A stretch of DNA of 64,000 nucleotides from Labilithrix sp. (GCA_044227045.1 JBGAFW010000002.1:67457-131456), one strand, 5' to 3'; shown: positions 13,512 to 34,678, numbered from the stretch's first letter. Translations and numbers: made by a program. The notes: generated by a model from the sequence alone, not told the origin.

Positions 13512-14576
13512 GTGCATCTCGTCGTCCCTCCCGGAGGCTCGTTTCGTGAGGCGCGCCGCATCGAGCTCGACGCGCGCGTGCTCACGATCGGACGAGCAGA
13601 AGCGTGCGATGTCCGGATTGACGTTCCGGGCGTCGACGACGAGCACGCCAAGATCAGCGAGGTCGCGCTGATCGCCGTCGGAAACGACTGCGCGGTGGGC
13701 GACGTCCCGCTCGACGCGGGCTGCCGCCGCCTCGTGATGCCGGGCGACGAGATCCAGATCGGCAGCGTGGTCCTCGGGCTCGACGGCACCGATCCGAGCA
13801 CCGCGCACGACAAGCCACGCGTTCCTGGACCGCGCATTCGCGTCGTCGAAGGTCAGAACTTCGGCGATGAGCTCGTGCTCGAGGCGGAGAACCGCGAGTA
13901 CGTCATCGGACGAAGCCCGAAGGCGGACCTGCGGCTCGAAGATCGCGAGGTCTCCCGCGAGCACATCAAGATCGTCCGGCGCGGGTTCTCCGTCTTTCTG
14001 TTCGACGCGGCGTCCACGCGCGGATCGTGGATTGGACGATCGGCGGTCTACCAAGGGTCACGAGTCGAGTGGCAGCGACCACGCATGCTGAAGCTCGGCG
14101 CGACGGTCCTCTCCCTCGAGCTGCCCGTCGAGGCAAGGCAACGTGCAGCGCCCGTGCAGGTCAGCGCGCCGATGACGCCGCCTCCCCGCGTGCGATCCGA
14201 GCGGCCCGCGATGCCGATCCCCGAGCCGACGCCACAAGGCGCGAGCCCGATCGTCGCCTACCACTACGAGGCCGCGCCGCAGCCGCCGACCCCCTCGCCG
14301 AACATGCCGTCGAGCCCGCCGATCGGAATGCCAGCGCCAGGCGTCGCGCCACCTGCCGCCGCGATGCCGCCGATGCCGTTGCCGATGATGCCCGGGCAGC
14401 CCGAGGTCGCGATTCATCCCTCGGTCCCGCCCGCGCAGATGCCGAACCGCGGATCGCGTACCGCGTGGAAGAAACAAGGCGCGACGATTGGTCGCGGCTC
14501 GGGGATCTTGCTACTCGCGCTCGCCGGCATCGCGATCCTCGGCGTCCTGTTCGTCGTCTTTTCGCTGATGGAGTGA
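13512..14576 (+). CDS. Membrane-anchored protein with two FHA domains
   Basis: Two FHA cores (LTIGRAEACDVRI...DDEHAKI; YVIGRSPKADLRLEDREVSREHIKI). A Pro-rich linker and a C-terminal TM segment (ILLLALAGIAILGVLFVVF). Confidence 0.8.
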   Translation: MHLVVPPGGSFREARRIELDARVLTIGRAEACDVRIDVPGVDDEHAKISEVALIAVGNDCAVGDVPLDAGCRRLVMPGDEIQIGSVVLGLDGTDPSTAHDKPRVPGPRIRVVEGQNFGDELVLEAENREYVIGRSPKADLRLEDREVSREHIKIVRRGFSVFLFDAASTRGSWIGRSAVYQGSRVEWQRPRMLKLGATVLSLELPVEARQRAAPVQVSAPMTPPPRVRSERPAMPIPEPTPQGASPIVAYHYEAAPQPPTPSPNMPSSPPIGMPAPGVAPPAAAMPPMPLPMMPGQPEVAIHPSVPPAQMPNRGSRTAWKKQGATIGRGSGILLLALAGIAILGVLFVVFSLME

Positions 14577-14748: not shown

Positions 14749-15096
14749 GTGAGCGACGAAGACCGAAAGACCCCGAACCCGGGACGTAAAGTGATGTTTG
14801 GCAACAACGAAGTCGTCGAGATCGAGACGTCCCAGTATCGCGCCATCGCGCGCGTCCGAAATATCCAAGGGGATCGCATTCATGTGGCCGTCGAGAGCGG
14901 GTATCTCCCGTGGATCGACGACCCGGTGAACGTGCGCAGCGCCAACGCGCCGAACAGCGCCGGCTTTGGTGCCCGCATCGTCCACGCGAGCGGGTCGACC
15001 GCGCTCATCGAGATCCTCGATGAGGTCGAGTCGCCCGCCGTCACGAGCACCGCGCGGATGCCCGCGATGCGCGACACGAAGCCGGATCTGTCGTAG
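14749..15096 (+). CDS. Small hypothetical protein (weakly PilZ-like)
   Basis: Looks more like coding sequence than the antisense ORF 14704..14985. No firm motif. Confidence 0.3.
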   Translation: MSDEDRKTPNPGRKVMFGNNEVVEIETSQYRAIARVRNIQGDRIHVAVESGYLPWIDDPVNVRSANAPNSAGFGARIVHASGSTALIEILDEVESPAVTSTARMPAMRDTKPDLS

Positions 15097-15106
15097 GGCG
15101 CGCGCC

Positions 15107-16312
15107 TTAGGTCGTCGGCAGCACGAGGCTCGGGTGCTGGTTGGCGCCGAACGGGCTGGTCGTCGGGCGCGTGACCGTGCCGAGGAGCGACCAGAACCCG
15201 GGGATGCCGGGCGTGTTCGCCGACAGAGACACGGCGCCCTGCGCGGTCTTGCCGGTCGTACCCTGCTTGACGTACTTGCCGATGAGCGTCGCCGACAGGT
15301 TCGGCTGGTGGTCCGAGCCCGGAAGGCTGCGCGCGAAGTCGCCGATGATCGCCACCACGACGTTGCGGGTCGTATCTTGGACCATGCGCGTGAGGAACGT
15401 GTTCAGCGGCGCGAGGATCGACTGCGTCATCTTGTTTCGGACGGTCGTTCCTTGCGTGTCGCCGTGCGTGTCCCAGCCCGCGTCGAACGCCGCGACGACG
15501 TTCGTGCCGGCGCGAACCATGAGCTCGGCGGCCGCCATCTTCGACTTGAAGTCCCGCACCGCGGTCGCGTTGCCGAGCGCGTAGGCCGTCTTCAGATCGT
15601 CGAGGGAGATTTGCTTCACCGGTTGCTTGAGCGTGTCGACCGCGGCGGTGTAGCCGTTCGCGAGCGAGTCGAGCGACTCCGGGCTGCCCGCGAGCACGTT
15701 CGCGCTCATCGTCTGCGCGCCCGTGACGCCCGCCAGGGCGATCGTGCGGTCCGGAACGCGCGGGTTGGCGACGCCGCCGCCGAGCGCGTCGATCGTCTTC
15801 TGCATGTCGGTGATCGACTGGAAGGAGACGCCCCCGACGGCAGCCTTCGGCGCTTCGGCGATCAGGTTGCCGCCGACGACGGCGGCCTTGATCGACGCCG
15901 TGCCGCCGATCGCGTTCGCGAGCGCCAGGCCGGCGTTGACGTTGTTCATCGTCCAGAGCGACTGGCGCGCTCCAGGGTGGTTCGAGATGCCGTGACGGAC
16001 GCCCACCGTCGCCATGTGGTTCTTGGCGAACGCGCTCATCGAATTCGCGAACGTGTTGTCGACCGCGAGGCCGTTGCCGAGGACGGTGTGGTTGCCGGCG
16101 GTCACGCCGAACTTGCCGACGAGGGAGTCTGCGCTGCCGAAGAGCGCGTTGTACCCACCGACGAGGTGAAGAATGACGAGCGACGTCGGCTCGGCGGTCG
16201 CGGCCTTTGCCTCGCCGATCCAGCCGGCGCCCGGGATGCGCGATCCCACCGCGGCGCCGACGCCGATGCCGAGGCTCTTGAGAAACCCACGTCGTGAAAA
16301 TCCTGTGCTCAT
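15107..16312 (-). CDS. DUF1501-family protein with a twin-arginine (Tat) signal
   Basis: MSTGFSRRGFLKSLGIGVG is a Tat motif. The DUF1501 signature is present (FDAGWDTHGD). The start is an internal ATG of ORF 15107..16570. Confidence 0.8.
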   Translation of the reverse strand: MSTGFSRRGFLKSLGIGVGAAVGSRIPGAGWIGEAKAATAEPTSLVILHLVGGYNALFGSADSLVGKFGVTAGNHTVLGNGLAVDNTFANSMSAFAKNHMATVGVRHGISNHPGARQSLWTMNNVNAGLALANAIGGTASIKAAVVGGNLIAEAPKAAVGGVSFQSITDMQKTIDALGGGVANPRVPDRTIALAGVTGAQTMSANVLAGSPESLDSLANGYTAAVDTLKQPVKQISLDDLKTAYALGNATAVRDFKSKMAAAELMVRAGTNVVAAFDAGWDTHGDTQGTTVRNKMTQSILAPLNTFLTRMVQDTTRNVVVAIIGDFARSLPGSDHQPNLSATLIGKYVKQGTTGKTAQGAVSLSANTPGIPGFWSLLGTVTRPTTSPFGANQHPSLVLPTT

Positions 16313-16332
16313 GGCTTGGCTTCTCTCTGTTC

Positions 16333-17010
16333 TCAGTAGGTCAGGAATCCGGCGGAGGAGAGGACCGACGCGCATGCGTAGGCCCACTTGCGTCGGGGCT
16401 GCGGCTCGGTCGCCGTGCCCGTCGTCGCGACGTCGACGCACGCTTGCACTTCTTGCGGCGCGGGCGTCTTGCTCCAGAACTTGCGCGCCATCGCGGCGCA
16501 TTGGGTCGCGGCGGACGCCGCGTCGGGCGCGGCGGCAAACTCCGGCGCCGTCTGCGTGTACGTGAGGCACCCGTCGAACGCGATGCCGTACGCCGTTTGG
16601 AGCGCGACGGCGTTTGCCTGCGGCTCGTCGTACCAGCGCGCGGGCACCTGGCCGAACGTCGGACCCGCGCCTTGGAGCGACGCGGGCGCCGCGCCGAGCA
16701 CGCGTGCATACTCGGTCTGCAGCGCCGAGAAGGGCTTCACGCGACCGCGATCGACGCCGAGCTTCGCGACGACGCGCGTGCTGTGGAGCGGGATGTTGTC
16801 GAAGCCTGCGTACTCCTTCGAGGTGCAGAGCGCCGGGTCGGTCGGATCGGTCGGCGCGTTGGGATCGCCTTGCGCGTTCGGATCGTTCGGATCGTTGCCG
16901 GGATTGTTGCGGCGACCGGTGAGGTTTTCGGGATCGTCACCGCATGCCGCGATGAGAAGAGCGCCGAGGCCGAGATAGAACAGGATGGTGAGCTTGTTCG
17001 TGTTCATCAT
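16333..17010 (-). CDS. Hypothetical lipoprotein (Asn/Pro/Asp-rich linker)
   Basis: MMNTNKLTILFYLGLGALLIAAC gives a lipobox. Lies between the CxxCH-protein gene and the DUF1501 gene on the same strand. Confidence 0.6.
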   Translation of the reverse strand: MMNTNKLTILFYLGLGALLIAACGDDPENLTGRRNNPGNDPNDPNAQGDPNAPTDPTDPALCTSKEYAGFDNIPLHSTRVVAKLGVDRGRVKPFSALQTEYARVLGAAPASLQGAGPTFGQVPARWYDEPQANAVALQTAYGIAFDGCLTYTQTAPEFAAAPDAASAATQCAAMARKFWSKTPAPQEVQACVDVATTGTATEPQPRRKWAYACASVLSSAGFLTY

Positions 17011-17042
17011 GTTGGCTGTCTTTCGTTCGTTCGCGCTCGTGC

Positions 17043-18011
17043 CTACTGGCAGAACGAAGCGTCCTTCGCGATGGCGGATAGGGCAGCCTGAATGGTGCCG
17101 GTCTGGGTGAACGCATCGACGCACTTGTCGAACACTTGTCCTTCGCAGGTGCTCTCCGGCCGTCCGTAGAGGAACTCGAAGCCGAGCCGGCACGCGTTGA
17201 AGCGGAAGTTCTCCGACGCGACGAGCGCTTCGACGAGGTCCTTGTCGTTCGCGATTGTCTTGCCGCTGAGGATCGTCTGCGGACCTTCGGTCGGCGGGAG
17301 GTAGGTGATGTTGTCACCGGTGCCCTTGCGCTTCGAGAGGACCTTCGACACGAGGTCGAGCGCGAACCAGCCGTTGTAGTGGCAGCCCGCGCACGCCGGC
17401 GCCTTGCGGCCGTCGGCGCTGAGGTCGACGCCTTCGACGTTCGTCGTCGCGGTGAGCTTGAGCCCCGTCGTGTTCTGGAGCATGCGGTAGCCCGCCGAGA
17501 TGCGGTAACCGTCCTTCTCGTTGCCCGCGTACCGCTTCATCCACGCGGCGCTGCGGAAGTAGCCGAGGCCGTTCGGGTCGGGCGTGACCGCGTCGGCGAC
17601 GCTGTACTGGCCGACGAACATGTCCTTCCAGGGCTTCGTGCCGTCCGTCAGGATGAACTTCGCGAGCGTGTACGACGCGTCGTCGGCGATCTCTTCGCCG
17701 GGCTCGGGGTTGAACTGCGAGTTCACGAAGCGCGCGAAGCGATCGATGAACTGCGGATCCTTCAGGATCGTGTCGACCGCGTCTTGTGGGTTCGCCGACG
17801 CCATGAGCTCGGGCGTCGCGCTCTTGCCGAGCAACGCCACGGACACGCGCGTCGCGCAACGCTCACGCTTCTCGGTCGCTTCGGCTTCGCCGTCCGCGCG
17901 TGCGTGCTGGGGCTTCGCCAAACCGATCGAGAGCGCCAGCGCGCCGACTGCCAGCGGGGCAACGGCCTTTGCGACTCTCTTCAGGGATGTCGTCCATGTC
18001 CGCATGATCAT
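17043..18011 (-). CDS. Secreted protein with a single CxxCH (c-type haem-binding) motif
   Basis: GGAG, then ATG, then MIMRTWTTSLKRVAKAVAPLAVGALALSIGLA (signal). The motif is KAPACAGCHYNGWF. First gene of the three-gene operon that ends with DUF1501. Confidence 0.55.
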   Translation of the reverse strand: MIMRTWTTSLKRVAKAVAPLAVGALALSIGLAKPQHARADGEAEATEKRERCATRVSVALLGKSATPELMASANPQDAVDTILKDPQFIDRFARFVNSQFNPEPGEEIADDASYTLAKFILTDGTKPWKDMFVGQYSVADAVTPDPNGLGYFRSAAWMKRYAGNEKDGYRISAGYRMLQNTTGLKLTATTNVEGVDLSADGRKAPACAGCHYNGWFALDLVSKVLSKRKGTGDNITYLPPTEGPQTILSGKTIANDKDLVEALVASENFRFNACRLGFEFLYGRPESTCEGQVFDKCVDAFTQTGTIQAALSAIAKDASFCQ

Positions 18012-18415
18012 CGAGCTCCTGTCTTTCCGTCCGTCTGCCGCATTGCAGCGCGCGTTCCTGAAATCGATCGCGGCCGAATCGGCAATTCCTTCGTGATTTC
18101 GCCGGTCATTCCGCGATCCAGAGACCTCGTTTCGGAACGAGACGTTCGTTGTCGCGAACGTTTCGTTCGCGACGCCATGCCCATCCGGAACGTTCTGGGC
18201 GTCTTCTCCGACCGCGCCGTGCATCACGCGCGAACGAAGTGCAGGAAGATGGCCGCGCGCGCATCGAGGGATCCTGCACGCAACGTTGCGCAACTCGCGC
18301 ACGGCGCTGCGCGTACTGATTCAGGCCACGCCGCGCGTCCGTGCGAGCGCTGTGGATCGCCCGCGAGCGTTGCTCACGCGCGTCGTCTCATGCACGTGCG
18401 TGCATCGAAGACAGG

Positions 18416-19867
18416 TCAGCGGTGGCTACGTGCCTTGAGCTTCTGAAAGTAACGTCGGCCGATGCCGGACGCGGCGGCCGCCTTCGCGACGTCGCCGCCG
18501 TGGCGTTGAAGGAGGCGCGCGACGAAGCGAGCCTCGAACTCCTCGAGGATGCGGTCGCGCGCTTGCGGGTACGGCACGTCCATGTCGACGAAGCGATCGA
18601 TCGCGTCGGGCAGCGGTGGAGGCTGCGAGGGTGAGCCGCCGAGGCCTGGCGGCGCGAACGGCGTGCTCGGCGTGCCCGACGGATAGCCCATGCTCATCGC
18701 CGGCGGGGGAACGCTCGCCGGCGCGGAGAACGAGGGCTGCAACGACGCCAGCTCGCCGAGCGCGAGCTGTCGCGCGATCGTGTTGCGAAGCTCGCGCACG
18801 TTGCCGGGCCACGCGAAGTCTTCCCATTTCTGGAGGAGCTCGCGCGGGATCGCGTTTGGGTCGCCGCCCATCTCGCGCCAGAAGTGCATCGCGAGCGCGG
18901 TGATGTCGCCCTTGCGTTGGCGGAGCGGCGGGAGCTCCACGCGCGCGACCGCGAGGCGGTGAAACAGGTCGTCACGGAAGCGACCGACCTGCACCTCGCG
19001 ATCGAGATCCCGTCGCGTCGCGGCGAGGACGCGCACGTCGACCCGCATCCACTTGTCGCCGCCGATGCGGCGTACCTCGAAGCGCTCGATCGCGCGAAGG
19101 AGCTTCGGCTGGAGCGAGAGATCGAGATCGCCGATCTCGTCGATCAGGAGCGTGCCGCCTTGCGCCTGCTCGAACACACCTCGGCGTGCCTGCATCGCGC
19201 CAGTGAAGGCGCCGCGCTCGTGCCCGAAGAGCTCCGCCTCGACGAGGCTCGGCGGCACCGCGGTGCAGTCGAACACGACGAACGGACCTTGCGCGCGCGG
19301 TCCCATCTCGTGGAGCGACTCGGCGAGCGCTTCCTTGCCGGTGCCCGTCTCGCCTTCGATGACGACCGGCACGGTGGTCTGCGCGAGGCGCTCGAGCAGC
19401 GGGTAGAGGCGGCGCATCTCACGGCTCGCGCCGACGACGCGACCGAACGACACGGCGGGAGAGAGCGGCGGCTCGGCCGCTTCGTAGGCGTCGTCGACGT
19501 CGACGCGAAACATCGTCGACCCGATCCGGAGAAACTCACCGCCTTGAAGATCGGCGAGCACCACCTTGACGCGATCGACCCAGGTCCCGTTCGTCGAGCC
19601 GAGATCGCTCACGCGGAGCGCGTCGCCGATCACCTCGAGGGCGACGTGGCGGCGTGAGACCTCGGGGTCGCTCAGCCGGATCTCGCACGCGGGGCTCGTC
19701 CCGACGAGCGCGCGGACGGCGAGGGAAGAGTCGAGTCGGTACGATCGCCCGCGCTCGGGCCCTTCGGTGACGACGAGCGTGAACGCGGTGGGTCCCCCAG
19801 ATCCAGCCTCTTCCGCGTCGCGTCGCTGGACGACGGTCGCGAGGAGATCGCGGTCGCTGTCCCTCAT
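18416..19867 (-). CDS. Sigma-54-dependent transcriptional activator with an N-terminal FHA domain (enhancer-binding protein)
   Basis: FHA (LVGTSPACEIRLSDPEVSRRHVAL). AAA+ sigma54 domain (VVIEGETGTGKEALAESLHEMGPR, ELFGHERGAFTGA, GAFT loop, GNVRELRN). C-terminal HTH. The start is an internal ATG (MRDSDRDL). Confidence 0.85.
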   Translation of the reverse strand: MRDSDRDLLATVVQRRDAEEAGSGGPTAFTLVVTEGPERGRSYRLDSSLAVRALVGTSPACEIRLSDPEVSRRHVALEVIGDALRVSDLGSTNGTWVDRVKVVLADLQGGEFLRIGSTMFRVDVDDAYEAAEPPLSPAVSFGRVVGASREMRRLYPLLERLAQTTVPVVIEGETGTGKEALAESLHEMGPRAQGPFVVFDCTAVPPSLVEAELFGHERGAFTGAMQARRGVFEQAQGGTLLIDEIGDLDLSLQPKLLRAIERFEVRRIGGDKWMRVDVRVLAATRRDLDREVQVGRFRDDLFHRLAVARVELPPLRQRKGDITALAMHFWREMGGDPNAIPRELLQKWEDFAWPGNVRELRNTIARQLALGELASLQPSFSAPASVPPPAMSMGYPSGTPSTPFAPPGLGGSPSQPPPLPDAIDRFVDMDVPYPQARDRILEEFEARFVARLLQRHGGDVAKAAAASGIGRRYFQKLKARSHR

Positions 19868-19919
19868 GCGTCCAGCATAGCCGGTTTCGTGCGTCTCGAT
19901 CGCCGCGAGTGGCGCCGTG

Positions 19920-21566
19920 TTAATCGAAGCGGCGAAATCCAGAGCTCGAGCTGGTCTGCGGCGCGGTTCGTTGCCCCTTGCTACCGTCGTTGCTGCGCGG
20001 TGGTCGAACGGCGGGACGACCGACGTGCACGACGACGGGCGTGAGGCCCACGAGCACCTTCTGATCGGCGTCGGGCACCACCTGCTGCGTCGCCGTGACG
20101 TAGCCTTGGCGGCGAAGCTCGAGGACGAACGGCTCCTGTCCGCGCAAGACGAGCAGATCGATGGGCGTTTCGCCGCGTTCCTGGTTGTTGACGAGCACGC
20201 GCGCGCCCGGCGGCTTCGTCTCGACGTGAACGAACACCTCGTCTGCGCCGGCGTCGGGGCGTGCGCCCGGGGTAGCGAGTGACGAGGGCGCGGGCAGCGC
20301 CGGCAGAGGACCATCCGCCGTCGCCTCCCTCGAAGACCGCGCTTGGCGTAGCGCCATCCCGACGCCGAAGACGATCACCGCGAGGACTCCGAGCGACGCG
20401 ATCGCCACGACGCGCCAGCGTCGCGCGTGGACGACGGCGAGACGTGGATCGGTCTGCACGATCGTCGCCGCCTCCGGCGCGACCGGGACGTCGACGTTCT
20501 CGTCGGTCTCACCCGCAGGCACGTGCGAGAGCCCTTCACCGGCGCTGACCTTACGAAGGAGGTCCTCCTTCTCGGTGATCCGATCCGGAAAGAGCCTTCG
20601 CATGCGCTCGGCGAGCGCCTCGACCGGTGAGGTGAGCTCGCGGGTCACCTCGAGCAGCTCGAGACGCATCTCGGCGGCGGTCGCATGGCGATCGTCGGGG
20701 CTCTTCGCGAGCGCCTTCATCACGATCGCTTCGAGCTTCGCGGGGTACTTCGCCGCCAGCTCGCGGGAGGAGATCGCGCGTGAAGGAGGGACGATCGGCT
20801 CGCGGCACACCGCCTCGATCGACTTCGCCGCGCTCGCGCGCTTGAAGAGGCGCCGTCCGGTCGACAGCTCGTAGAGCACGATCCCGAGCGAGAACAGATC
20901 GCTCCTTCGATCGAGCGGCTTGCCGAGGCCTTGCTCGGGCGACATGTACTCGAACTTGCCTTTGACCTCGCCGGGCTCGGTGCGCGCGTCGCGTCGATCC
21001 ACGAGGGCGACGCCGAAGTCGACGAGCTTCACGTGACCGTCGTAGGCGACGAGGAGGTTCTGCGGAGACACGTCGCGATGGACGAGGTTCTGCGGTTGCC
21101 CATCGTCATCGGTGAGCTCGTGCGCGGCGTGGAGGCCCGCGCATGCCTCGGCGATGATGTGCGCGGCGAGCCGTGGGTCGAGCGGATCGCCGGAGGCCGT
21201 GCTGCGCTTGAGAAGGCTCGAGGCGTTCTCTCCCGCGACGTACTCCATCACGAGGAACGCTTCCTTCGTGTTCGCCTCCGCGTCGACGTGCTCGCCGAGC
21301 TCCTGCACGTGGACGACGTTCGGATGGCGAAGCGACGCGACGATACGTGCCTCGTCGAGGAACATCTTCACGAACGAGGTGTTCGCGGCGTACGACCGGA
21401 GGATGCGCTTGATGACGACCGCGCGCTTGAAGTCCGCCGGCCCCGAGAGCCGAGCGAGGAGGATCTCCGCCATGCCGCCAGCGGCGAGCTGACCGAGCAC
21501 TTCGTAGCGTCCGATCCTCTTTGGCGCTGCCGTCGTCGCGGCTTCTGTCGTCGTGGGGCTCGTCAC
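19920..21566 (-). CDS. Membrane Ser/Thr protein kinase with an extracytoplasmic PEGA domain
   Basis: Hanks kinase motifs (GGMAEILLAR, VVIK, HRDVSPQNLLV, DFGVA, SPEQ). A TM segment (VVAIASLGVLAVIVFGVGMAL). C-terminal PEGA (VETKPPGARVLVNNQERGETP). Confidence 0.85.
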   Translation of the reverse strand: MTSPTTTEAATTAAPKRIGRYEVLGQLAAGGMAEILLARLSGPADFKRAVVIKRILRSYAANTSFVKMFLDEARIVASLRHPNVVHVQELGEHVDAEANTKEAFLVMEYVAGENASSLLKRSTASGDPLDPRLAAHIIAEACAGLHAAHELTDDDGQPQNLVHRDVSPQNLLVAYDGHVKLVDFGVALVDRRDARTEPGEVKGKFEYMSPEQGLGKPLDRRSDLFSLGIVLYELSTGRRLFKRASAAKSIEAVCREPIVPPSRAISSRELAAKYPAKLEAIVMKALAKSPDDRHATAAEMRLELLEVTRELTSPVEALAERMRRLFPDRITEKEDLLRKVSAGEGLSHVPAGETDENVDVPVAPEAATIVQTDPRLAVVHARRWRVVAIASLGVLAVIVFGVGMALRQARSSREATADGPLPALPAPSSLATPGARPDAGADEVFVHVETKPPGARVLVNNQERGETPIDLLVLRGQEPFVLELRRQGYVTATQQVVPDADQKVLVGLTPVVVHVGRPAVRPPRSNDGSKGQRTAPQTSSSSGFRRFD

Positions 21567-21593
21567 GAGAACGAGCCAGAGCCTAGCACCAAG

Positions 21594-22415
21594 TCACTCG
21601 CAGCCCGGCATACCCTGACCTTTGCCGATCGCGCACGGCAAGCAGATCTCGGTGATCCCGCATCCGCCGCGCATGACCTGCTTGGTGCCGCGGAGCATCG
21701 AGGCGAAGCAGACGTCGAGGCAAACGCCCGGGACGCCGAGGACGTCGCACTTGACCGGCGCGCCGTCGACCATCGCCGCCGGGGCGCACACCTTCTGGCT
21801 CGGGCATGCGTCGCGCTGCATGTTTTCGCGCTGATCTTCGGGGATCGCGTCGAGCTTCGAGCAGACGCCGGCGCCGTGGCAGCACGACTCGGCGCTCGAC
21901 CCGTCGACTCCGCCGACGCAGTCCTTCTCGTGCACGCCGGTCTCGTCGCAGACGTGCGTGTCGGTGCCGTCGAGCGGGTTGATGCAGGGCGCGCAGCGCT
22001 CGTTTTCGTCGCAGACGTCCTTCTGGAGCTCGTTCTCGTGCGCCTTGATGTCCTTCAGGAGGAGGCTGACGCATGCGCCCGGCTTCTGCTCCATGAAGAA
22101 GGTGCACGCCTTCAGCTTCGTGCCGTTCGCGCTGAGCACCTTGTCCGGGACGCAGACCTCATCGCCTTCGCACGCCGGGAGCTGGGAGGCCGCGATCGGG
22201 ACCTTGGCGTTGTTGTAGCAATGCCCTTTGCCGTCGCCGCATGCCTTGAGCGATCCGAGGTCAGCCTTCACGTGCGGTGACTCGCACGTGCGCGTCTCCT
22301 TCTTCGCGCGGACCGGGAGCGTGACGGTGGCGTACGTGGTCTCGCCGACCGAGCATGCCACGCCGAGCAAGGAGAGCGCTGCGGTGACGATCAAGAGCTT
22401 CGAGAGGGAGTGCAT
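21594..22415 (-). CDS. Cys-rich secreted protein, paralog A (unknown family, about 16 conserved Cys)
   Basis: Signal peptide (MHSLSKLLIVTAALSLLGVAC). Conserved blocks shared with paralog B: ACGDGKGHC, VCVPD, ANG, CAPCI, GVHEK.C, KC.P.AMV.G.PV.CD, GVC.D.CF..ML, GCG.TE.C.PC. Confidence 0.65.
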   Translation of the reverse strand: MHSLSKLLIVTAALSLLGVACSVGETTYATVTLPVRAKKETRTCESPHVKADLGSLKACGDGKGHCYNNAKVPIAASQLPACEGDEVCVPDKVLSANGTKLKACTFFMEQKPGACVSLLLKDIKAHENELQKDVCDENERCAPCINPLDGTDTHVCDETGVHEKDCVGGVDGSSAESCCHGAGVCSKLDAIPEDQRENMQRDACPSQKVCAPAAMVDGAPVKCDVLGVPGVCLDVCFASMLRGTKQVMRGGCGITEICLPCAIGKGQGMPGCE

Positions 22416-22449
22416 GGTCGTTCTCGCGAGGAGTTCTCGTGAAGGGCGC

Positions 22450-23406
22450 TCAGGGGGTCGCGGCGCAGCCGGGGACGCCCTGATCGGCGACGAGCTTGCA
22501 CGGGATGCAGAGCTCCGTCTCACCGCAGCCTTCGCCGTCGAGGATGCCGATGCCACCCGCGATGCTCAGCATCTTGTTGAAGCATTTGTCCATGCACACG
22601 CCCGCGCCGAGAATGCCCGCGTCGCACGTGACGGGCTTGCCTTCGACCATCGCCTTCGGGACGCACTTGTTCGCGTCCGCGCACGTGTCTTGAACGGCCT
22701 TGTCGCGCTGCGCCTCGGGGACGCCGCTCTCGCTGATGCAGATGCCGTTGCTCTTTCCCTTCGTCGTGCAGCACCCGGGCGCGGCGGTGGCTGCGCCGGT
22801 CGATCCGCCGGCAGGGGCCGCGGCGCACGGCTTCTCGTGGACGCCGATCGGCTGGCAGAACGGCGTCGGCGCGTTGTTGTTCGTCGGATCGATGCAGGGT
22901 GCACAGACTTGTCCGGCGGAGCAGGTGTCTTGCTTGAGGGCGCCGGCCGCGCGCTTCTCGCCTGCGGGCAGGAGGCTCATCGTGACGCATGCGCCCGGTC
23001 CGATGATCGACTTGCAGCTCGTCAGCGGGCTCCCGTTGGCGGCGAGGATCTCGTCGGGGACGCACACCTCGTTGGCGTTCGCGCACGCGACGAGCTGATC
23101 GGCCATCGGCGTCTTCGTCTTGTCGAAGCAGTGACCTTTGCCGTTGCCACACGCCGTGAGCTTGCTCACGTCCGCTTTGACGAAGTCGTTCGTTCCGCAC
23201 GTCGCGCCCGCGCCGCCCGAGGGCGAGGCGGAGGAAGACGAGGGCGACACGCCCGCGGCTCCGGCGTCGGCTGCCGTCTGCTCGCCTTCCTGGGTCGTGA
23301 TGTACGTGGGGCTCGCGAGCGTGCAGGCCTGGGTTCCGATCAGGGCGAACAGAGCGCCACCGAACGCGAGAGTCGCCATCACCCGAGCACTGCTTGTCGT
23401 CGACAT
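22450..23406 (-). CDS. Cys-rich secreted protein, paralog B (tandem duplicate of A)
   Basis: AGAGGA RBS, then ATG. Signal peptide MSTTSSARVMATLAFGGALFALIGTQAC. Colinear with paralog A (same Cys framework). Confidence 0.65.
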   Translation of the reverse strand: MSTTSSARVMATLAFGGALFALIGTQACTLASPTYITTQEGEQTAADAGAAGVSPSSSSASPSGGAGATCGTNDFVKADVSKLTACGNGKGHCFDKTKTPMADQLVACANANEVCVPDEILAANGSPLTSCKSIIGPGACVTMSLLPAGEKRAAGALKQDTCSAGQVCAPCIDPTNNNAPTPFCQPIGVHEKPCAAAPAGGSTGAATAAPGCCTTKGKSNGICISESGVPEAQRDKAVQDTCADANKCVPKAMVEGKPVTCDAGILGAGVCMDKCFNKMLSIAGGIGILDGEGCGETELCIPCKLVADQGVPGCAATP

Positions 23407-23662
23407 TTCGATCCTCTTTGTCTTTCGAGTGGCTGATCGACCTGACCAACCGTTCCGAGCGATGGAGGTAAGTGCGAGCTTCGTACCGCTCCCGACACGG
23501 CGCCCGCACGGGTCCTTGTTTGAGTAAATTGTCTCGTTAAAACGATGGCTTACGCTCTTTTGGGGACACGTCGAGCGACCATGAGAAGGCCACGCGCGCA
23601 AAGGACGTCCTGATCGCGTTGATCGGCACAGAGAGATCCGACCTGCTAGAACGAGCGTCTCG

Positions 23663-24511
23663 ATGGCTCGCCTCCATCGCGTCTTTTCGCAGCTTGGATG
23701 GCTGCTCGTGGTCGCGCTGACGCTTCACCCAACGTCAGCGTTTGCGGCTCCGACTGCGCCTGCGCCGCGATCTGGATCGACGATGGACCGGGACCACGCG
23801 CCGGCGCCCGCGCCGGCGTCGACGAGCGATCCGAGCCGTGATCGCGCCCTCGACTTGTTCGAGCAGAGCATGCGATCGTACCGCGAGGGACGTTTCCAAG
23901 AGGCCGTCGACAAGCTGATCGAAGCAAGGAAGCTGAAGAGCGAGCCAGTCCTCCTCTACAACCTCGCGCGAGCGTACGAGGCGCTCGGGCAGTCGAAGGA
24001 GGCGGCCGACGCGTACGCGCAGTATCTGAACGAAGAGCCCAACGCGCCCGATCGCAAGGCGATCGAAGGCCGGATCACGACGCTTCGCGCGCAAGCCGCG
24101 CAAGCCGCCGAGCTCGCCGCTCGCCAGTCGTCGCCACCCAGCGGCGAGGACGGATCGAAGGAGAAGGACACCAAAGACAAGGACGTCGTGGCGGAGCCGC
24201 GCGAGTCGACGACGTCGGTGGTGCCGTGGGTCGTCGTCGGCGCAGGCGCGCTCACGATCGGCGCGGGCTTCGTCATCTACGGCTTGGCGCAAGGCAAGCA
24301 CGACGACGCCACGCAGGATCCCGTGCAGCTCTCGGCGGCGGGAAAACAAGACTCCGCCGAGGGCCTCGCGACCGCCGCGACGGCGACGATCTTGGCAGGC
24401 GCCGTCGTGACCGTCATCGGCGCTGCGTGGGTCGTCGTCCGGATGACGTCGTCGTCTTCCTCCACGAGGGCGTCGGCGCGCTTCGACCCTCCCTTGCGCT
24501 GGACGTTCTGA
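23663..24511 (+). CDS. Secreted/membrane TPR-repeat protein (paralog of the 34675 and 44343 proteins)
   Basis: Signal peptide. A TPR-like block (LLYNLARAYEALGQSKEAADAYAQYL). A TM segment near the C-terminus (VVPWVVVGAGALTIGAGFVIYGL). Confidence 0.6.
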   Translation: MARLHRVFSQLGWLLVVALTLHPTSAFAAPTAPAPRSGSTMDRDHAPAPAPASTSDPSRDRALDLFEQSMRSYREGRFQEAVDKLIEARKLKSEPVLLYNLARAYEALGQSKEAADAYAQYLNEEPNAPDRKAIEGRITTLRAQAAQAAELAARQSSPPSGEDGSKEKDTKDKDVVAEPRESTTSVVPWVVVGAGALTIGAGFVIYGLAQGKHDDATQDPVQLSAAGKQDSAEGLATAATATILAGAVVTVIGAAWVVVRMTSSSSSTRASARFDPPLRWTF

Positions 24512-24513
24512 CG

Positions 24514-25701
24514 ATGCGCGCCTCGACGTTCCTCCGCCCTGCGCGATCGCTTGCTTTGGCGATCGCGGCGGCGATCGTGCTCGTGCGTGGCGTGGCGTGC
24601 ACCGTCGACGATCTCTCGCTCGAGGGAAAACAGTGCCCGTGCACGACGGGGTACACCTGCGATCTCGCGACCAACACGTGCGTGGTCGGGCTCGACGCGA
24701 ACGCGCTGCCGACGAAGGACGGCGATACCACGACCGACGCGCCGGTGGGCGGGTTCGTCGTCCAGCGCTTCGTCGCGACGTGGCGCACCTCGAAGAGCAT
24801 CCGCTGGGACTTCGACGTCTCCGGCGACGCGAGCGAGTTCGCCGAATACCAGCTCATCGTCGGCGCGACCGAAGACGCCGTCCGGCGACAAGACTCGTCG
24901 ACCGGGCTCTTCGACCGCCGCATCAACCCCGAGCTCGGCAGCTTCGGCGGGCGGGACCCGGTCGCGCCCGGCGCGGTCGCTCGCGCCTGGACGGTCACCG
25001 ACAAGCATCCCGTCGGCAAGACGGTGTTCGCGCGGCTCATCGTGCGCGACAAGCAAGGCCGCGAGAACGCGAGCAACGTCATCTCCGCCGACACGCGGCT
25101 CGAGAGCCGTGCGCTCGTGCTCTTCGGCGATCAGCTCCTCGACGGATCGGCTCCGACGCCGGTGGATCTGAAGCGCGTCGCGAACGACTGCTTCAACGCG
25201 AGCGCGGGCTGCCTCCAGATCGGGAAGGTGACCTGTCCGGCCGTCGACGCAGGGCCCGACGCGGCCGCGGACGCCGCGACGTCGTGCGGCTTCGAGATCG
25301 GTCTTCAGAGCTTCGAGAAAGACGTCACCGCCAACACGCTCACGCAGGCGGACTTCGAGGGCGCGTTCGTCGAGATCGGCGTCCGCGGTGGACCTGCCGC
25401 CTCACCCAAGCCGCAGTCGGATTTGATCTTGTCGATCGGCGCGCCGGCCTGCCGGATCGGCGGCCAGAAGTGTCGCTTCCGCTGGTCGAACGGCTGGTCG
25501 TTTCGCCCCGGCCCGAAGGAGTTCCGGCTCGTTCAGGTGCCGCTCGGCTCGCTCTTGCTCGACACCCCGGGCGGACCTGGTCAGCCGCTCAAATACGAGG
25601 ACTTCGCGGCGAACGCGCTCCGCGTCGAGGCGATCACGATCGACGGGACCTGGGCGGTCGGCGCCAACATCGGCCTCGACCAGGCCACCATTCGCTGGTG
25701 A
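24514..25701 (+). CDS. Hypothetical secreted lipoprotein
   Basis: ATG 3 nt after the upstream stop. MRASTFLRPARSLALAIAAAIVLVRGVAC, then a Cys-rich N-terminus. The longer track ORF 24226 has an Arg-rich, non-coding-looking extension. Confidence 0.5.
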   Translation: MRASTFLRPARSLALAIAAAIVLVRGVACTVDDLSLEGKQCPCTTGYTCDLATNTCVVGLDANALPTKDGDTTTDAPVGGFVVQRFVATWRTSKSIRWDFDVSGDASEFAEYQLIVGATEDAVRRQDSSTGLFDRRINPELGSFGGRDPVAPGAVARAWTVTDKHPVGKTVFARLIVRDKQGRENASNVISADTRLESRALVLFGDQLLDGSAPTPVDLKRVANDCFNASAGCLQIGKVTCPAVDAGPDAAADAATSCGFEIGLQSFEKDVTANTLTQADFEGAFVEIGVRGGPAASPKPQSDLILSIGAPACRIGGQKCRFRWSNGWSFRPGPKEFRLVQVPLGSLLLDTPGGPGQPLKYEDFAANALRVEAITIDGTWAVGANIGLDQATIRW

Positions 25702-25770
25702 AAACCGCCGCCCGGCTCCCGTTTGCTGCCGCGGTTGTGCTCTTCGGGGCGCCGTGGCAAAAGAATCACC

Positions 25771-27087
25771 ATGTGCACGTGCCATAGCGAGCTGTACACC
25801 AAACGTCGTCGCGCGTTCCTCGAAGCCATTCACGCCAAGGGCGATGACGGCGTCGCGGTCTTCGCGTCTGCCCCGGTCTTCACGCGCAACAACGACGTCG
25901 AGCACGAGTACAGGCAAGACTCCGATCTCTTCTACCTGACGGGCTTCGCCGAGCCGGGCACCGTGCTCGTGCTCGACGCGAAGGACAAGAAGTCGACGAT
26001 GTTCGTCCGCCCGCGCGATCCGGAGCGCGAGACGTGGGACGGACCGCGCGCAGGCGTGGACGGGGTGAAGGAGCATTTCGGCGCAGACGAGGCGTTCACG
26101 ATCGACAAGGTCGCCGAGGAGCTGCCGAAGCTCTTCCAGAACAAGAAGCGTCTCTATTACCGCCTCGGCCTGAACCGCCAGATGGACGACAAGATCCTCG
26201 AAGGGATCGATCGCGCGCGCGCCCGCGCGAAGCTCGGCTACTCGTGGCCGGTCGAGATCGTCGACCCCGGCACCATCCTCCACGAGATGCGCCTGTTCAA
26301 GAACAACGAAGACCTGAGCACGATGCGCAAGGCCGCCGACATCACCGCCGAGGCCCACCTCCGCGCGATGAAGGCCGCGAAGCCCGGCATGCACGAGTTC
26401 CAGGTCGAGGCGATGCTCCTCGAGACGTTCCGCATGCACGGCTCGGAGCGCCCCGCGTACGGGAGCATCGTCGGCTCCGGCAACAACGCGACGATCCTCC
26501 ACTACCGCCTCAACAACCGAAAAATGGAGGACGGCGACCTCCTCCTCATCGATGCGGGCTGCGAGTACGACTACTACGCGAGCGACGTGACGCGCACCTT
26601 CCCGATCAACGGGAAGTTCTCGAAGGAGCAGCAGGCGATCTACGAGCTCGTCCTCGACGCGCAAGAGGCAGGCATCGACAAGACGCGCAAGGGCAGCTCG
26701 CTCGAGCAGATCCATGCGACGTGCGTCGACGTCATCACGCGCGGCCTCGTGAAGCTCGGGTTGCTCACCGGTGACGTCGAGCAGCTGATCAAGGACGAGG
26801 CCTACAAGCCGTTCTTCATGCACAAGACGAGTCACTGGCTCGGCATGGACGTCCACGACGTCGGCAACTACTACGTCGGCGGCAAGGCCCGCGCGCTCGA
26901 GCCCGGCATGGTGCTCACGGTGGAGCCCGGCATCTACATCTCGAAGGACTACGACAAGGTCGCGCCCGAGTGGCGTGGCATCGGCGTCCGCATCGAAGAC
27001 GACATCCTCGTCACCGAGGGCGATCCGGACAACCTCACGCGATCGATCCCGAAGAAGGTCAGCGAGCTCACGAGCGCGATGGCCTGA
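25771..27087 (+). CDS. pepP: Xaa-Pro aminopeptidase (M24B)
   Basis: Pita-bread fold motifs (DAGCEYDYYASDVTRTFPING, HGTSHWLGMDVHDVG, EPGIYI, GIRIEDD). Confidence 0.85.
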   Translation: MCTCHSELYTKRRRAFLEAIHAKGDDGVAVFASAPVFTRNNDVEHEYRQDSDLFYLTGFAEPGTVLVLDAKDKKSTMFVRPRDPERETWDGPRAGVDGVKEHFGADEAFTIDKVAEELPKLFQNKKRLYYRLGLNRQMDDKILEGIDRARARAKLGYSWPVEIVDPGTILHEMRLFKNNEDLSTMRKAADITAEAHLRAMKAAKPGMHEFQVEAMLLETFRMHGSERPAYGSIVGSGNNATILHYRLNNRKMEDGDLLLIDAGCEYDYYASDVTRTFPINGKFSKEQQAIYELVLDAQEAGIDKTRKGSSLEQIHATCVDVITRGLVKLGLLTGDVEQLIKDEAYKPFFMHKTSHWLGMDVHDVGNYYVGGKARALEPGMVLTVEPGIYISKDYDKVAPEWRGIGVRIEDDILVTEGDPDNLTRSIPKKVSELTSAMA

Positions 27088-33076: not shown

Positions 33077-34678
33077 ATGGCGGCGAAGCTCGCGCGATCG
33101 CAGCGGACTGCTACGCGGGGATCCATCCCCGACGTGGGACGGTCGACGCTCAAGGTCGGTGACCTGCTCGCCAGCAAGTACCGCGTCGAGCGCGTGCTCG
33201 GCGAAGGCGGCATGGGCGTGGTTGTCGAAGCCTATCACGAGCTTCTCGATCAACGCGTCGCGGTCAAGCTCCTCTACCAAGACATCGCCGACCGTGAAGC
33301 GCAGTCGCGCCTCCTGCTCGAAGCGCGCTCCGCGGCGAAGCTCCAGAGCGATCACGTCGCGCGCGTCATCGACGTCGACGTCGGGCCGGACGGATTGCCC
33401 TTCATTGTCATGGAGCTGCTCGAGGGCTCTGATCTCTGCCAGATCGCCGATGCGCGCGGTGCGCTGCCTCGATGGTTGGTTGTAGATTACATGCTTCAGG
33501 CGCTCGAGGGGCTCGCGCACGCGCATGGTCGCCAGATCATCCATCGCGATCTGAAGCCGTCGAATCTCTTCCTCACCAACCGCCCGGACGGAACGCAGAT
33601 CATCAAGATCCTCGACTTCGGGATCTCGAAGTCTTCGGGTGATCCGGGAGATCGAAGGCAAGCGCAGCTCACCGGCGGGCGCAGCGTCCTCGGCTCGCCG
33701 CCGTACATGTCACCGGAGCAGGTACGAAGCCCGAAGAGCGTCGATCACCGCACGGACATCTGGTCGCTCGGGATCTGCATGTACGAGCTCCTTACGAACT
33801 CGATGCCGTTCGGCGGCGACGAGCTCCAAGAGACGTTCGCGCAGATCCTCGAGAAGGAGCCCACGCCCATTCGTGCGCTCGTCACGGGCGTCCCGGAAGG
33901 CCTCGAGCAGGTCGTGATGAAGTGCCTCGCCAAGAACCGCGAGAATCGCTTCAGCGACGTGGGCGAGCTCGCCAAGGCGATCGTTCCGTACGGCTCGGGC
34001 ACGTGGATTCAATCGGCCGATCGCGTGCAAGCGACGCTCGCGCGTGCGCTGATGGAAGACCTCACGAGCGGCACGCGTCTCCGCGGACCGTCCGCGCCCT
34101 CGTCCGATCGCATCCCGATCCCGTCGTCGCGTCGCCTCGACTCGATGCAGCCCGAGCTCACCGGCACAGCGAGCACCGTCGCGCGCCGCTTTACCGTCTT
34201 CGAGTCGAAGAAGCGCTGGATCCTCGGCGTCGCGGCCGTCTCGGCGCTCGCAGGTCTCGGGCTCATCGGCGTCGGCGTCATGAAGTCCCAAGCGGTCGCG
34301 CCGGGCGCCGAGCTCGATCCGAGCGCGTCGGGTCGCCCGAGCGAGCCGCCGGCCGCCGCGGTCGATCCGTCGACCGTCACGACCGTCACGCCTACGCCCA
34401 CGGCTCCGAGCCAGCCGGCGATGGTCTCCGTCGAGAACGATCTGCCTTCGATGCCCACGAACGCGACCGGCACGGTGATCGGCGCGTCGTCCCCAGGCAC
34501 GAACACGCCCGCCGCCGCGACAGGCTCGGCGAAGCGCGGAGGCGCGGCTCCCACGCTCCGTGCTCCGCCGCCTCCCACGACGAAGAAGCCAAGCAGCAGC
34601 GGAGCGACACCGTCTGCCGCGGGTGGCTCGAAGCCTGGCTTGCCACCAGGTCTTCCGCAAAATCGCTCGGGTCAATGA
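33077..34678 (+). CDS. Ser/Thr protein kinase
   Basis: GEGGMGVVVEA, VAVKLL, IIHRDLKPSNLFL, DFGISK, SPEQ. Pro/Thr/Ala-rich C-terminus. The ATG at 33077 (MAAKLARSQ) is the first in-frame ATG. Confidence 0.8.
   Translation: MAAKLARSQRTATRGSIPDVGRSTLKVGDLLASKYRVERVLGEGGMGVVVEAYHELLDQRVAVKLLYQDIADREAQSRLLLEARSAAKLQSDHVARVIDVDVGPDGLPFIVMELLEGSDLCQIADARGALPRWLVVDYMLQALEGLAHAHGRQIIHRDLKPSNLFLTNRPDGTQIIKILDFGISKSSGDPGDRRQAQLTGGRSVLGSPPYMSPEQVRSPKSVDHRTDIWSLGICMYELLTNSMPFGGDELQETFAQILEKEPTPIRALVTGVPEGLEQVVMKCLAKNRENRFSDVGELAKAIVPYGSGTWIQSADRVQATLARALMEDLTSGTRLRGPSAPSSDRIPIPSSRRLDSMQPELTGTASTVARRFTVFESKKRWILGVAAVSALAGLGLIGVGVMKSQAVAPGAELDPSASGRPSEPPAAAVDPSTVTTVTPTPTAPSQPAMVSVENDLPSMPTNATGTVIGASSPGTNTPAAATGSAKRGGAAPTLRAPPPPTTKKPSSSGATPSAAGGSKPGLPPGLPQNRSGQ

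Follow-up and report, generated by a model that had tools for sequence, protein, structure and literature searches.

A cassette for putative Cys-rich lipoproteins with a predicted sigma-54 promoter beside a conserved PEGA kinase/FHA activator pair in Labilithrix sp.

Introduction

FHA-domain sigma-54 enhancer-binding proteins (EBPs) have reportedly been described in Myxococcus xanthus. The EBP considered here shares with these myxobacterial proteins an N-terminal FHA domain, an AAA+ domain with the GAFTGA motif and a C-terminal Fis-type HTH, and a Ser/Thr kinase, not a histidine kinase, is likewise its expected input. It differs in that a candidate cognate kinase is encoded directly upstream, a pairing kept across many Polyangia contigs, and in that its FHA domain carries Gly-Thr in place of Gly-Arg. 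Pairs of kinases and FHA-EBPs have long been proposed in myxobacteria; to our knowledge, a particular kinase has been assigned to few of these activators. EBP cascades, in which one activator controls another through an EBP gene lying behind a sigma-54 promoter, are said to operate during M. xanthus development; at the present locus a comparable arrangement would be created by a lipoprotein cassette in front of a kinase and an EBP gene, as read from sequence alone.

The kinase resembles PASTA-bearing PknB-type receptor kinases, being a Hanks-type enzyme with a single TM helix and a small beta-rich extracytoplasmic domain, whereas its sensor is PEGA and its predicted output is an FHA-EBP, not cell-wall targets. 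The lipoproteins recall TIGR02232 (myxo_disulf_rpt) and other named Cys-rich repeats, which are also Cys-rich repeated modules of secreted myxobacterial proteins; however, the repeat found here is ~100 aa long with 12 Cys per unit and does not match them at E <= 0.1. Below, the window denotes the whole 64-kb stretch of Labilithrix sp. DNA that was analysed, and homologous loci bear L numbers. The new result is a predicted sigma-54 -24/-12 element ahead of cysB, the first gene of the lipoprotein pair.

Results

The four minus-strand genes proposed in the initial annotation all match open reading frames (Table 1). They are separated by gaps of 34 nt (cysB/cysA), 27 nt (cysA/kinase) and 52 nt (kinase/EBP), no terminator-like site was found on the minus strand within these gaps, and an AAGAGGA ribosome-binding site precedes the cysB ATG. 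A four-gene operon, as originally suggested, is plausible in this genome given the common strand, the short gaps and the terminator-free spacing, although related loci do not share one gene order. The order cysB-cysA-kinase-EBP is confined to the window and L015 and, in part, L016; it is missing from L017 and L032-L035, which lack cysBA, and from L001-L003, L005-L008, L010, L012 and L013, where neither kinase nor EBP lies beside cysBA.

Table 1. Features of the cysBA-kinase-EBP region, in window coordinates
Feature	Position	Strand	Description
cysB	22450..23406	(-)	318-aa predicted lipoprotein; lipobox Cys28 and 24 further conserved Cys; from translation
cysA	21594..22415	(-)	273-aa predicted lipoprotein; lipobox Cys21 and 24 further conserved Cys; internal ~100-aa repeat present twice
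Kinase gene	19920..21566	(-)	Hanks-type Ser/Thr kinase, 548 aa, one TM helix, periplasmic PEGA domain
EBP gene	18416..19867	(-)	FHA / AAA+ (GAFTGA) / HTH_8 sigma-54 enhancer-binding protein, 483 aa
Predicted sigma-54 type -24/-12 promoter of cysB	23473..23488	(-)	CGGTACGAAGCTCGCA; conserved element, consensus yGGyACG-N4-TCGCA
Candidate upstream activator site of the cysB promoter	23612..23642	(-)	GTCGGATC-N7-GTGCCGATC-N5-GATC; three GATC repeats, placed ~125-155 nt before the -24 element
cysBA cassette extent	21583..23649	(-)	Arms of split palindrome: CTAGCA 23649-23644, TGCTAG 21588-21583
TPR protein gene	23663-24511	(+)	Divergent from kinase; signal peptide and two TM segments
Predicted lipoprotein gene, ~394 aa	~24517-25701	(+)	Beside TPR gene; pair spans 23663..25701
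Two GAACG-N3-CGTTC palindromes	18135..18168	(.)	21 bp apart; may be where the adjacent EBP binds
Second, weaker sigma-54-like -24/-12 element	18044..18059	(-)	AGGAACGCGCGCTGCA; candidate, ahead of downstream operon
Secreted CxxCH protein gene	~18014-17043	(-)	Downstream of EBP
286-aa protein gene	17193-16333	(-)	Downstream of EBP
DUF1501 protein gene	ORF 16570-15107	(-)	TAT signal; downstream of EBP; true start later than ORF start

CysA and CysB are tandem paralogs, as the initial annotation had it, with 44% identity across 244 aa (E = 9e-54), and each of the four Cys motifs cited there occurs in both. The proposed 16-Cys framework was an undercount: 24 Cys are conserved in addition to an invariant lipobox Cys, giving 25 per protein. 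The idea of free secreted proteins also gives way to a predicted lipoprotein localisation. The N-terminus is hydrophobic and is followed by A-C, lipobox A20 and C21 being present in 90% or more of 110 sequences; the -3 position holds Leu in some sequences, not all. Each protein comprises two copies of an unnamed Cys repeat with CxPC and CVP signatures, which in relatives forms arrays of up to ~10 units, and the B-type ortholog lies upstream of the A-type at all loci. Searches against Pfam and NCBIfam profiles returned no family for CysA or CysB at E <= 0.1, ten longer relatives likewise gave no Pfam family, and a confident predicted structure had no PDB match. The suspicion that these proteins stand outside any named family therefore held in the Pfam, NCBIfam (including TIGR02232) and PDB comparisons; the family comprises 653 cluster representatives and has no Pfam or NCBIfam model.

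Upstream of cysB, a GG-N10-GC element was found within 85 nt of the gene in all 21 distinct loci, at a constant distance from the GGAGG ribosome-binding site and the ATG and between flanks that are not conserved. The background for elements of this type is 0.075 match per 300 nt per strand, which gives a binomial tail of ~1e-26. Across 20 sites, GG, A5 and GC never vary, and C6 and G7 each occur in 18; the spacing between GG and GC is exactly 10 nt and the context resembles TGGCACG-N4-TTGCW. The -12 element reads TCGCA where the textbook sequence has TTGCA, and a strict sigma-54 consensus search (<=2 mismatches) failed to pick up the site, which is the sole one of at least 15 bits within the window. 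We infer that the element is sigma-54 dependent. Farther upstream, a block of GATC repeats is kept in the window, L015, L016 and L008, and 8 of 19 loci have GATC clusters between -80 and -180, where 0.87 GATC per 100 nt would be expected; this pattern was noticed post hoc, and the block is a candidate only for an enhancer site of the cysB promoter.

The identification of the two other proteins as a PEGA-bearing kinase and an FHA-sigma54 activator was borne out by Pfam domains and by catalytic and GAFTGA motifs. The kinase matched Pkinase (PF00069, 2.5e-32) and PEGA (2.3e-08), with VVIK at 50, HRD at 163, DFG at 183 and SPE at 209; its single TM helix at ~383-409 places PEGA in the periplasm. 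Among NCBIfam models the PknB_PASTA kinase domain comes closest, at 228 bits, under the 450-bit cutoff, and orthologs with 55-98% identity have an unchanged architecture. The EBP matched FHA (PF00498, 2e-12; 47.8 bits versus a cutoff of 20.7, residues 55-116), Sigma54_activat (PF00158, 2.3e-61) and HTH_8 (PF02954, 7.9e-05; 22.7 bits versus a cutoff of 22), and the 45 C-terminal residues are near-invariant among orthologs (58-99% identity). Walker A (GETGTGK at 172) and GAFTGA (at 219) are kept in orthologs; with these motifs and the HTH present, the EBP is predicted to be competent. FHA domains contact phospho-Thr through canonical Gly-Arg, Ser-x-x-His and Asn-Gly residues. In the EBP, S71, H74 and N93-G94 are present; the first pair is G56-T57 in the window, L016 and L033, and H or K occupies the Arg position in L026 and L004. 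With T57 where the canonical Arg would be, it is uncertain whether the domain docks phospho-Thr.

Comparison across loci separated the four genes into two units. The suggested kinase-EBP link stood: the genes are adjacent in the window/L015 lineage, L033, L034 and L035, in L016 they lie two genes apart, and 24 longest-contig values are common to the kinase and EBP homolog match lists. The inclusion of the Cys-rich pair in this module was not supported. Six loci (L017, L032-L035 and one JGI contig) carry the kinase module without cysBA, L033, L034 and L035 also having the EBP, and at least 13 other distinct loci carry cysBA without the kinase/EBP pair. L034 has the full synteny of the window minus cysBA: ECF sigma, sulfatase, Xer-like recombinase, aminopeptidase P, a 364-aa gene, the TPR gene, kinase and EBP, and beyond these DUF1501, a 104-aa gene and an FHA-only gene. 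Conversely, L002, L003, L008 and L013 have aminopeptidase P, cysBA, a small gene (not seen in L002 or L008) and the FHA-only gene; neither a kinase gene nor an EBP gene intervenes or adjoins. L012 has the same downstream side. In the window the ~2.05-kb cassette lies between palindrome arms, between the TPR and kinase genes; in L017 the arms adjoin (CTAGCAtgTGCTAC) inside the 38-nt TPR/kinase intergenic region, and L032, L034 and L035 have related GTAGCA pairs.

The kinase module also has constant neighbours. At each of the eight kinase loci examined (the window and L015, counted as one lineage, L016, L017, L032-L035 and the JGI contig) the TPR gene runs divergently from the kinase gene, and the gene for a lipoprotein of ~364-394 aa is present at all of them but L016, whose contig ends within the TPR gene. 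On the other side, homologs of the downstream genes (15107..18014) follow the EBP in L016, L033 and L034. CGAACG-type repeats stand at the same position past the EBP gene in L016, L033, L034 and L035, and none was found upstream of any cysB promoter; the GAACG-N3-CGTTC motif is not rare (26 in 423 kb). Elements akin to the second promoter, ending in CTGCA, precede the post-EBP gene in L016, L033 and L034; the score of this element in the window, 17, is level with many background matches. The downstream CxxCH/DUF1501 operon is the most likely direct target of the EBP.

Discussion

We consider it fairly probable that two units make up the locus, the cysBA cassette and a kinase/EBP module conserved across Polyangia. 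The cassette would be self-contained, with a candidate GATC enhancer site, a sigma-54 promoter, cysB and cysA, the products of the two genes being disulfide-rich. The second unit would comprise the membrane PEGA kinase and then the FHA/AAA+/HTH activator, flanked by the divergent TPR/TM and lipoprotein pair and by the CxxCH/DUF1501 operon with its putative sigma-54-like promoter and CGAACG palindromes. Signalling from kinase to FHA-EBP is suggested by their conserved adjacency. In this lineage the cassette would sit in the centre of the TPR/kinase palindrome. The kinase and EBP genes begin 27 nt past cysA, and transcription from the cysB promoter probably continues into them. Such read-through would place one activator under the control of another in a cascade; were this EBP itself to fire the cysB promoter as well, a feedback loop would result. 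The cysBA genes appear to be a mobile pair, and the event may have been either cassette entry or loss: differential loss from an ancestor arranged like the window would account for the aminopeptidase P anchor common to all three arrangements.

Since cysBA has its own conserved, predicted sigma-54 promoter, the Cys-rich proteins look like a transcriptional output of sigma-54 control rather than a proven input to the kinase. That the conserved element is instead an operator of another regulator, or a translational or leader element, seems highly improbable: the departure of the -12 region from TTGC and an inferred 5' UTR that is unusually short (~10-20 nt at most loci) would suit such a reading, but the invariant GG/GC at exact spacing with invariant A5 and near-invariant C6/G7 fits TGGCACG, the location right upstream of the ribosome-binding site suits a promoter, a near-identical element lies ahead of a syntenic ECF sigma gene, and an Rfam comparison gave no family match. 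A more serious, if still doubtful, possibility is an autoregulated four-gene operon, in which the adjacent FHA-EBP binds the GATC site and fires the cysB promoter in a positive feedback gated by kinase activity. The EBP is the sole sigma-54 EBP in the window and lies 3.6 kb from its sole strong sigma-54 promoter, the gaps are short and lack terminators, and the GATC block is common to the window and L016, both of which have the EBP. However, a GATC-type block and the promoter also occur in L008, L002, L003, L013, L001 and L006 with no EBP within the flanks examined, the CGAACG palindromes that travel with the EBP are missing upstream of the cysB promoter, and EBP orthologs remain at loci without cysBA.

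The initial annotation regarded CysA and CysB as extracellular ligands or co-receptors of the PEGA domain, within one complete extracellular-signal-to-sigma54 module. The conserved kinase/FHA-activator pair survives from this proposal; the completeness of the module is not supported, as cysBA is separable and carries its own predicted promoter. We regard the ligand or co-receptor role as unlikely, given the loci that carry either unit without the other, although the window, L015 and L016 all have cysA next to the kinase gene, in L009 too cysA is followed by a kinase gene, and the Cys-rich proteins are predicted in the same envelope compartment as PEGA. With three kinases in the window, or ~1 per 21 kb, chance adjacency of cysA and a kinase is likely. 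The TPR/TM protein and the ~364-394-aa lipoprotein, invariant envelope neighbours of the kinase (the lipoprotein wherever the contig reaches), are better co-receptor candidates. Our best guess is that the Cys-rich pair forms a stable heterodimeric structural protein or adhesin of the cell envelope or surface, induced under sigma-54 control. It is a long shot that the repeat lipoproteins represent a new disulfide-knotted fold family lacking a PDB analogue and, once induced through sigma-54, partner the PEGA kinase in the envelope, with kinase, FHA-EBP and cysBA closing an extracellular feedback circuit and giant relatives of 8-10 repeats serving as surface fibres of that system.

The two-unit reading carries a caution, as inferring function from adjacency is risky in genomes with a kinase every ~20 kb. 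It also matches one FHA-type sigma-54 activator to a specific conserved kinase partner and to candidate DNA sites, and suggests that a small cassette in an intergenic palindrome can place a kinase/activator pair under sigma-54 control. For the uncharacterised Cys-rich family, a predicted sigma-54 promoter ahead of its founding gene pair at every locus examined provides a concrete, testable regulatory assignment.

Protein architecture of the four genes and the Cys-rich repeat family

The window has a G+C content of ~68%, and the closest relatives of its proteins are found in MAGs of Labilithrix and other Polyangia. All four minus-strand ORFs described in the initial annotation are present, with coherent translations: cysB, cysA, a Hanks-type Ser/Thr kinase gene and a gene for a sigma-54 enhancer-binding protein (EBP). 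Pfam assigned Pkinase and PEGA to the kinase, and FHA, Sigma54_activat and HTH_8 to the EBP. The kinase has its catalytic motifs and a single membrane helix separating the kinase and PEGA domains, while the EBP has both Walker A and GAFTGA. The FHA domain of the EBP obtains a good Pfam score; in the window protein and its orthologs the canonical phosphate-binding Arg position is Thr, which would be a caveat on a kinase-to-EBP phospho-relay.

CysA and CysB are paralogs (44% identity, E = 9e-54), and each contains all four Cys motifs by which they had been described. Each protein contains 25 Cys, and not the 16 of the framework proposed initially. In an alignment of 110 relatives, 22 Cys are invariant and 2 nearly so, and the signal peptide ends in a nearly invariant Ala-Cys, which forms a lipobox. 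A Cys-rich unit of ~100 aa occurs twice in each protein (pairwise E = 2e-4). When 1.84 billion representatives were searched with a profile, 653 relatives were recovered at E ≤ 1e-3, including proteins of 800–1350 aa that each contain up to 10 stretches matching it and in which the same unit can be read from the sequence as head-to-tail repeats. No Pfam domain was found in the ten long relatives checked, and every source name found for the long relatives was 'hypothetical'. The AlphaFold2 model, with the 110-sequence alignment as input, was confident (pLDDT 90.5, pTM 0.77), and no PDB counterpart of this predicted structure was found. Since no Pfam or NCBIfam model matches either protein at E ≤ 0.1, the long relatives are named 'hypothetical' and the predicted structure lacks a PDB counterpart, CysA and CysB are best described as an unnamed family, as initially suspected.

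The giants, among them P0241 (1201 aa) and P0245 (1353 aa), have up to ~10 tandem units, no further Pfam domain and a hypothetical label in Polyangiales MAGs. Two close CysA homologs, P0004 and P0049, were deposited under the name 'Tryptophan synthase alpha chain', which automatic annotation repeatedly and wrongly gives to Cys-rich proteins of myxobacteria; no domain match in this analysis supports the label.

Positions of features in the window and, where named, in related loci
Feature	Locus	Position	Strand	Remark
Aminopeptidase P gene	window	25723-27087		shared chromosomal anchor
Predicted lipoprotein gene (~394 aa)	window	~24517-25701	+	
TPR gene	window	23663-24511	+	
Palindrome arm CTAGCA	window	23649-23644		adjoins TPR gene
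cysB promoter element	window	23488-23473		19.4 bits
cysB	window	23406-22450	-	
cysA	window	22415-21594	-	
Palindrome arm TGCTAG	window	21588-21583		just ahead of kinase gene
Kinase gene	window	21566-19920	-	
EBP gene	window	19867-18416	-	
Two GAACG-N3-CGTTC palindromes	window	18135-18168		21 bp apart, after EBP gene
Weaker -24/-12-like element	window	18059-18044	-	next after palindromes, before real start of CxxCH protein
Secreted CxxCH protein gene	window	17043-18014	-	first gene after EBP
DUF1501 protein gene	window	15107-16570	-	TAT signal; two genes beyond CxxCH gene
~104-115-aa protein gene	window	14749-15096	+	neighbour of FHA-only gene
FHA-only protein gene	window	13512-14576	+	
ECF sigma-70 family ORF	window	32782-32093		
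Sigma-54-like element CGGCATGACCATCGCA	window	32735-32720	-	upstream of ECF sigma-70 family ORF
Further Hanks-type kinase gene	window	33176-33970	+	
Further Hanks-type kinase gene	window	42860-43663	+	
Trypsin-family protease and reverse-strand 162-aa genes	L016	4592-5506		between kinase and EBP
Four tandem Cys-rich genes	L008	7109-10789		two B-A pairs, one promoter at 7024
Three copies of Cys-rich genes	L011	9012-11673		
FHA/AAA+/HTH protein gene	L026	154-1488		adjoins cysBA
FHA/AAA+/HTH protein gene	L004	7950-6748		adjoins cysBA

Variability of the genomic context

A genome scan with a narrower alignment (A2) yielded 11 loci; contigs from a metagenome scan were mostly too short to show gene context. 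The cysB-then-cysA tandem is kept in every locus recovered, and the cassette is amplified in two of the compared loci (L008 and L011). The four genes had been read as one extracellular-signal-to-sigma54 module. The cysB–cysA tandem and the kinase–EBP pair are each conserved, but the link between them is not, as seen in three locus arrangements that share one chromosomal anchor, the aminopeptidase P gene.

In arrangement (a), found in the window and L015, aminopeptidase P, the 394-aa gene and the TPR gene are followed divergently by cysB, cysA, kinase and EBP. L016, grouped here, has cysB, cysA and kinase, with two extra genes ahead of the EBP; kinase identity to the window is 98% in L015 and 74% in L016. 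With a protease gene and a 162-aa gene inserted there in L016, even the kinase–EBP junction is plastic. In arrangement (b) (L002, L003, L008, L013 and L014), aminopeptidase P is directly followed by cysBA and then by a convergent FHA-only gene; no TPR, kinase or EBP gene lies between or beside these genes, and a small gene between cysBA and the FHA-only gene was detected in L003, L013 and L014 only. L012 has the same downstream side. Arrangement (c) (L017, L032, L034 and a JGI contig) consists of aminopeptidase P, a ~364–387-aa gene, the TPR gene and a divergent kinase, without cysBA. In L034 the kinase is followed by the EBP and the genes through DUF1501; this locus shows the entire window synteny on both sides, but without cysBA. 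L033 and L035 likewise have the kinase module and lack cysBA, but lie elsewhere in the chromosome.

The kinase and EBP genes are immediate neighbours in window/L015, L033, L034 and L035; in L016, two genes separate them. As a crude proxy for co-occurrence, the lists of 120 kinase relatives and 120 EBP relatives have 24 'longest contig' values in common, and none of these occurs among the 120 listed CysA relatives. Kinase and EBP form a robust, well-conserved pair. A TPR/TM protein lies beside the kinase in 8/8 kinase loci (window and L015 counted as one lineage). A ~364–394-aa predicted lipoprotein is also present in each of them except L016, whose contig breaks off within the TPR gene. With three kinase genes in the 64-kb window, kinases are densely packed.

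The TPR–kinase intergenic region of L017 is 38 nt long and contains CTAGCAtgTGCTAC. Because the two window arms flank a 2.05-kb stretch that holds the upstream site and promoter together with cysBA, the cassette is placed exactly between the palindrome arms. Either insertion or differential loss would explain this spacing. A Xer-like recombinase adjoining aminopeptidase P was considered as the mobility agent and rejected; it is syntenic in all arrangements and therefore probably housekeeping.

The FHA-only gene is likewise syntenic in all three arrangements, and the ~104–115-aa gene was detected in most. The FHA-only protein carries a second FHA-like region, degenerate and N-terminal, as well as a Pro-rich linker and a TM anchor at its C terminus.

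A conserved predicted sigma-54 promoter upstream of cysB

A strict search for TGGCAC-N5-TTGCW with ≤2 mismatches gave no match at the locus and fewer matches than chance, and the cysB promoter emerged solely from locus comparison. Comparison of the 300 nt upstream of cysB across loci, scored with the textbook consensus for sigma-54, revealed in essentially all of them a GG-N10-GC element (yGGyACG-N4-TCGCA) just ahead of the GGAGG ribosome-binding site, within otherwise unrelated flanks; L011 has a slightly weaker version at the same place. Background was 0.075 equally good matches per 300 nt per strand (534 kb), and the binomial tail for ≥18 matches in 21 loci within 100 nt is ~1e-26. Under a scoring matrix built from the cysB-upstream sites themselves, the window element is the only site >15 bits in the whole 64 kb and the only one ≥13 bits in 17 kb around the locus. 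No Rfam match was found in 14–26 kb of the window. Because the element is conserved far above background, we infer that cysBA is transcribed as a unit under sigma-54 control, which would require an enhancer-binding protein.

A sigma-54-like element also precedes the ECF sigma-70 family ORF of the window, and near-identical CGGCACG-N4-TCGCA elements lie ahead of its syntenic counterpart in L002, L003, L013 and L017, which suggests a cascade from sigma-54 to the ECF sigma factor.

Candidate activators and targets

Upstream of the cysB promoter, GTCGGATC-N6/7-GTGCCGATC is common to the window, L015, L016 and L008; no EBP is present in the flanks examined of L008. Eight Labilithrix-like loci have GATC clusters between -80 and -180 of the promoter, and more distant loci have a GGGAAC-N6-GTTCCC palindrome in their place (in L020, L021 and L026, ~90–110 nt upstream of the cysB -24 element). 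Enumerating k-mers to find a common site upstream of cysB returned GC-rich noise only.

Downstream of the EBP gene, palindromes and a weaker promoter-like element precede the CxxCH gene. CGAACG-type repeats with a ...CTGCA element occupy the corresponding place in L016, L033 and L034; L035 has the repeats, but its element ends in GTGCT and is differently placed. This motif accompanies the EBP and occurs upstream of none of the cysB promoters, so the conserved direct target of the EBP is more probably the downstream CxxCH/286-aa/DUF1501(TAT) operon, and the cysB promoter is more probably served by another activator. The CxxCH motif is of the haem-binding type, and the CxxCH and DUF1501 genes resemble the Planctomycete-type cytochrome/DUF1501 pairing.

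The cysA–kinase gap is only 27 nt, so in this genome read-through from the cysB promoter would likely extend into the kinase and EBP genes. Another activator firing this promoter would then drive EBP expression, forming an activator cascade. Alternatively, the same EBP would fire the cysB promoter and close a feedback loop, a reading that the distribution of the CGAACG motif makes the less probable one. FHA-EBP-like neighbours of cysBA in L026 and L004 were considered as independent support for an EBP–cysBA link and rejected: both lack GAFTGA, and therefore are not classical activators. These proteins are ~44% identical to the window EBP with the GAFTGA loop deleted, and may regulate the cassette independently of sigma-54 or act on it as anti-activators.

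In M. xanthus, both FHA-type EBPs and cascades of EBPs are established, and none of these findings overturns current understanding; the kinase and FHA-EBP pair described here is a further, well-conserved and new case. Also new are the unnamed family of predicted Cys-repeat lipoproteins, the predicted sigma-54 promoter of cysBA, universally conserved among the loci examined, and the placement of the cassette, which would rewire a kinase/EBP regulatory pair.
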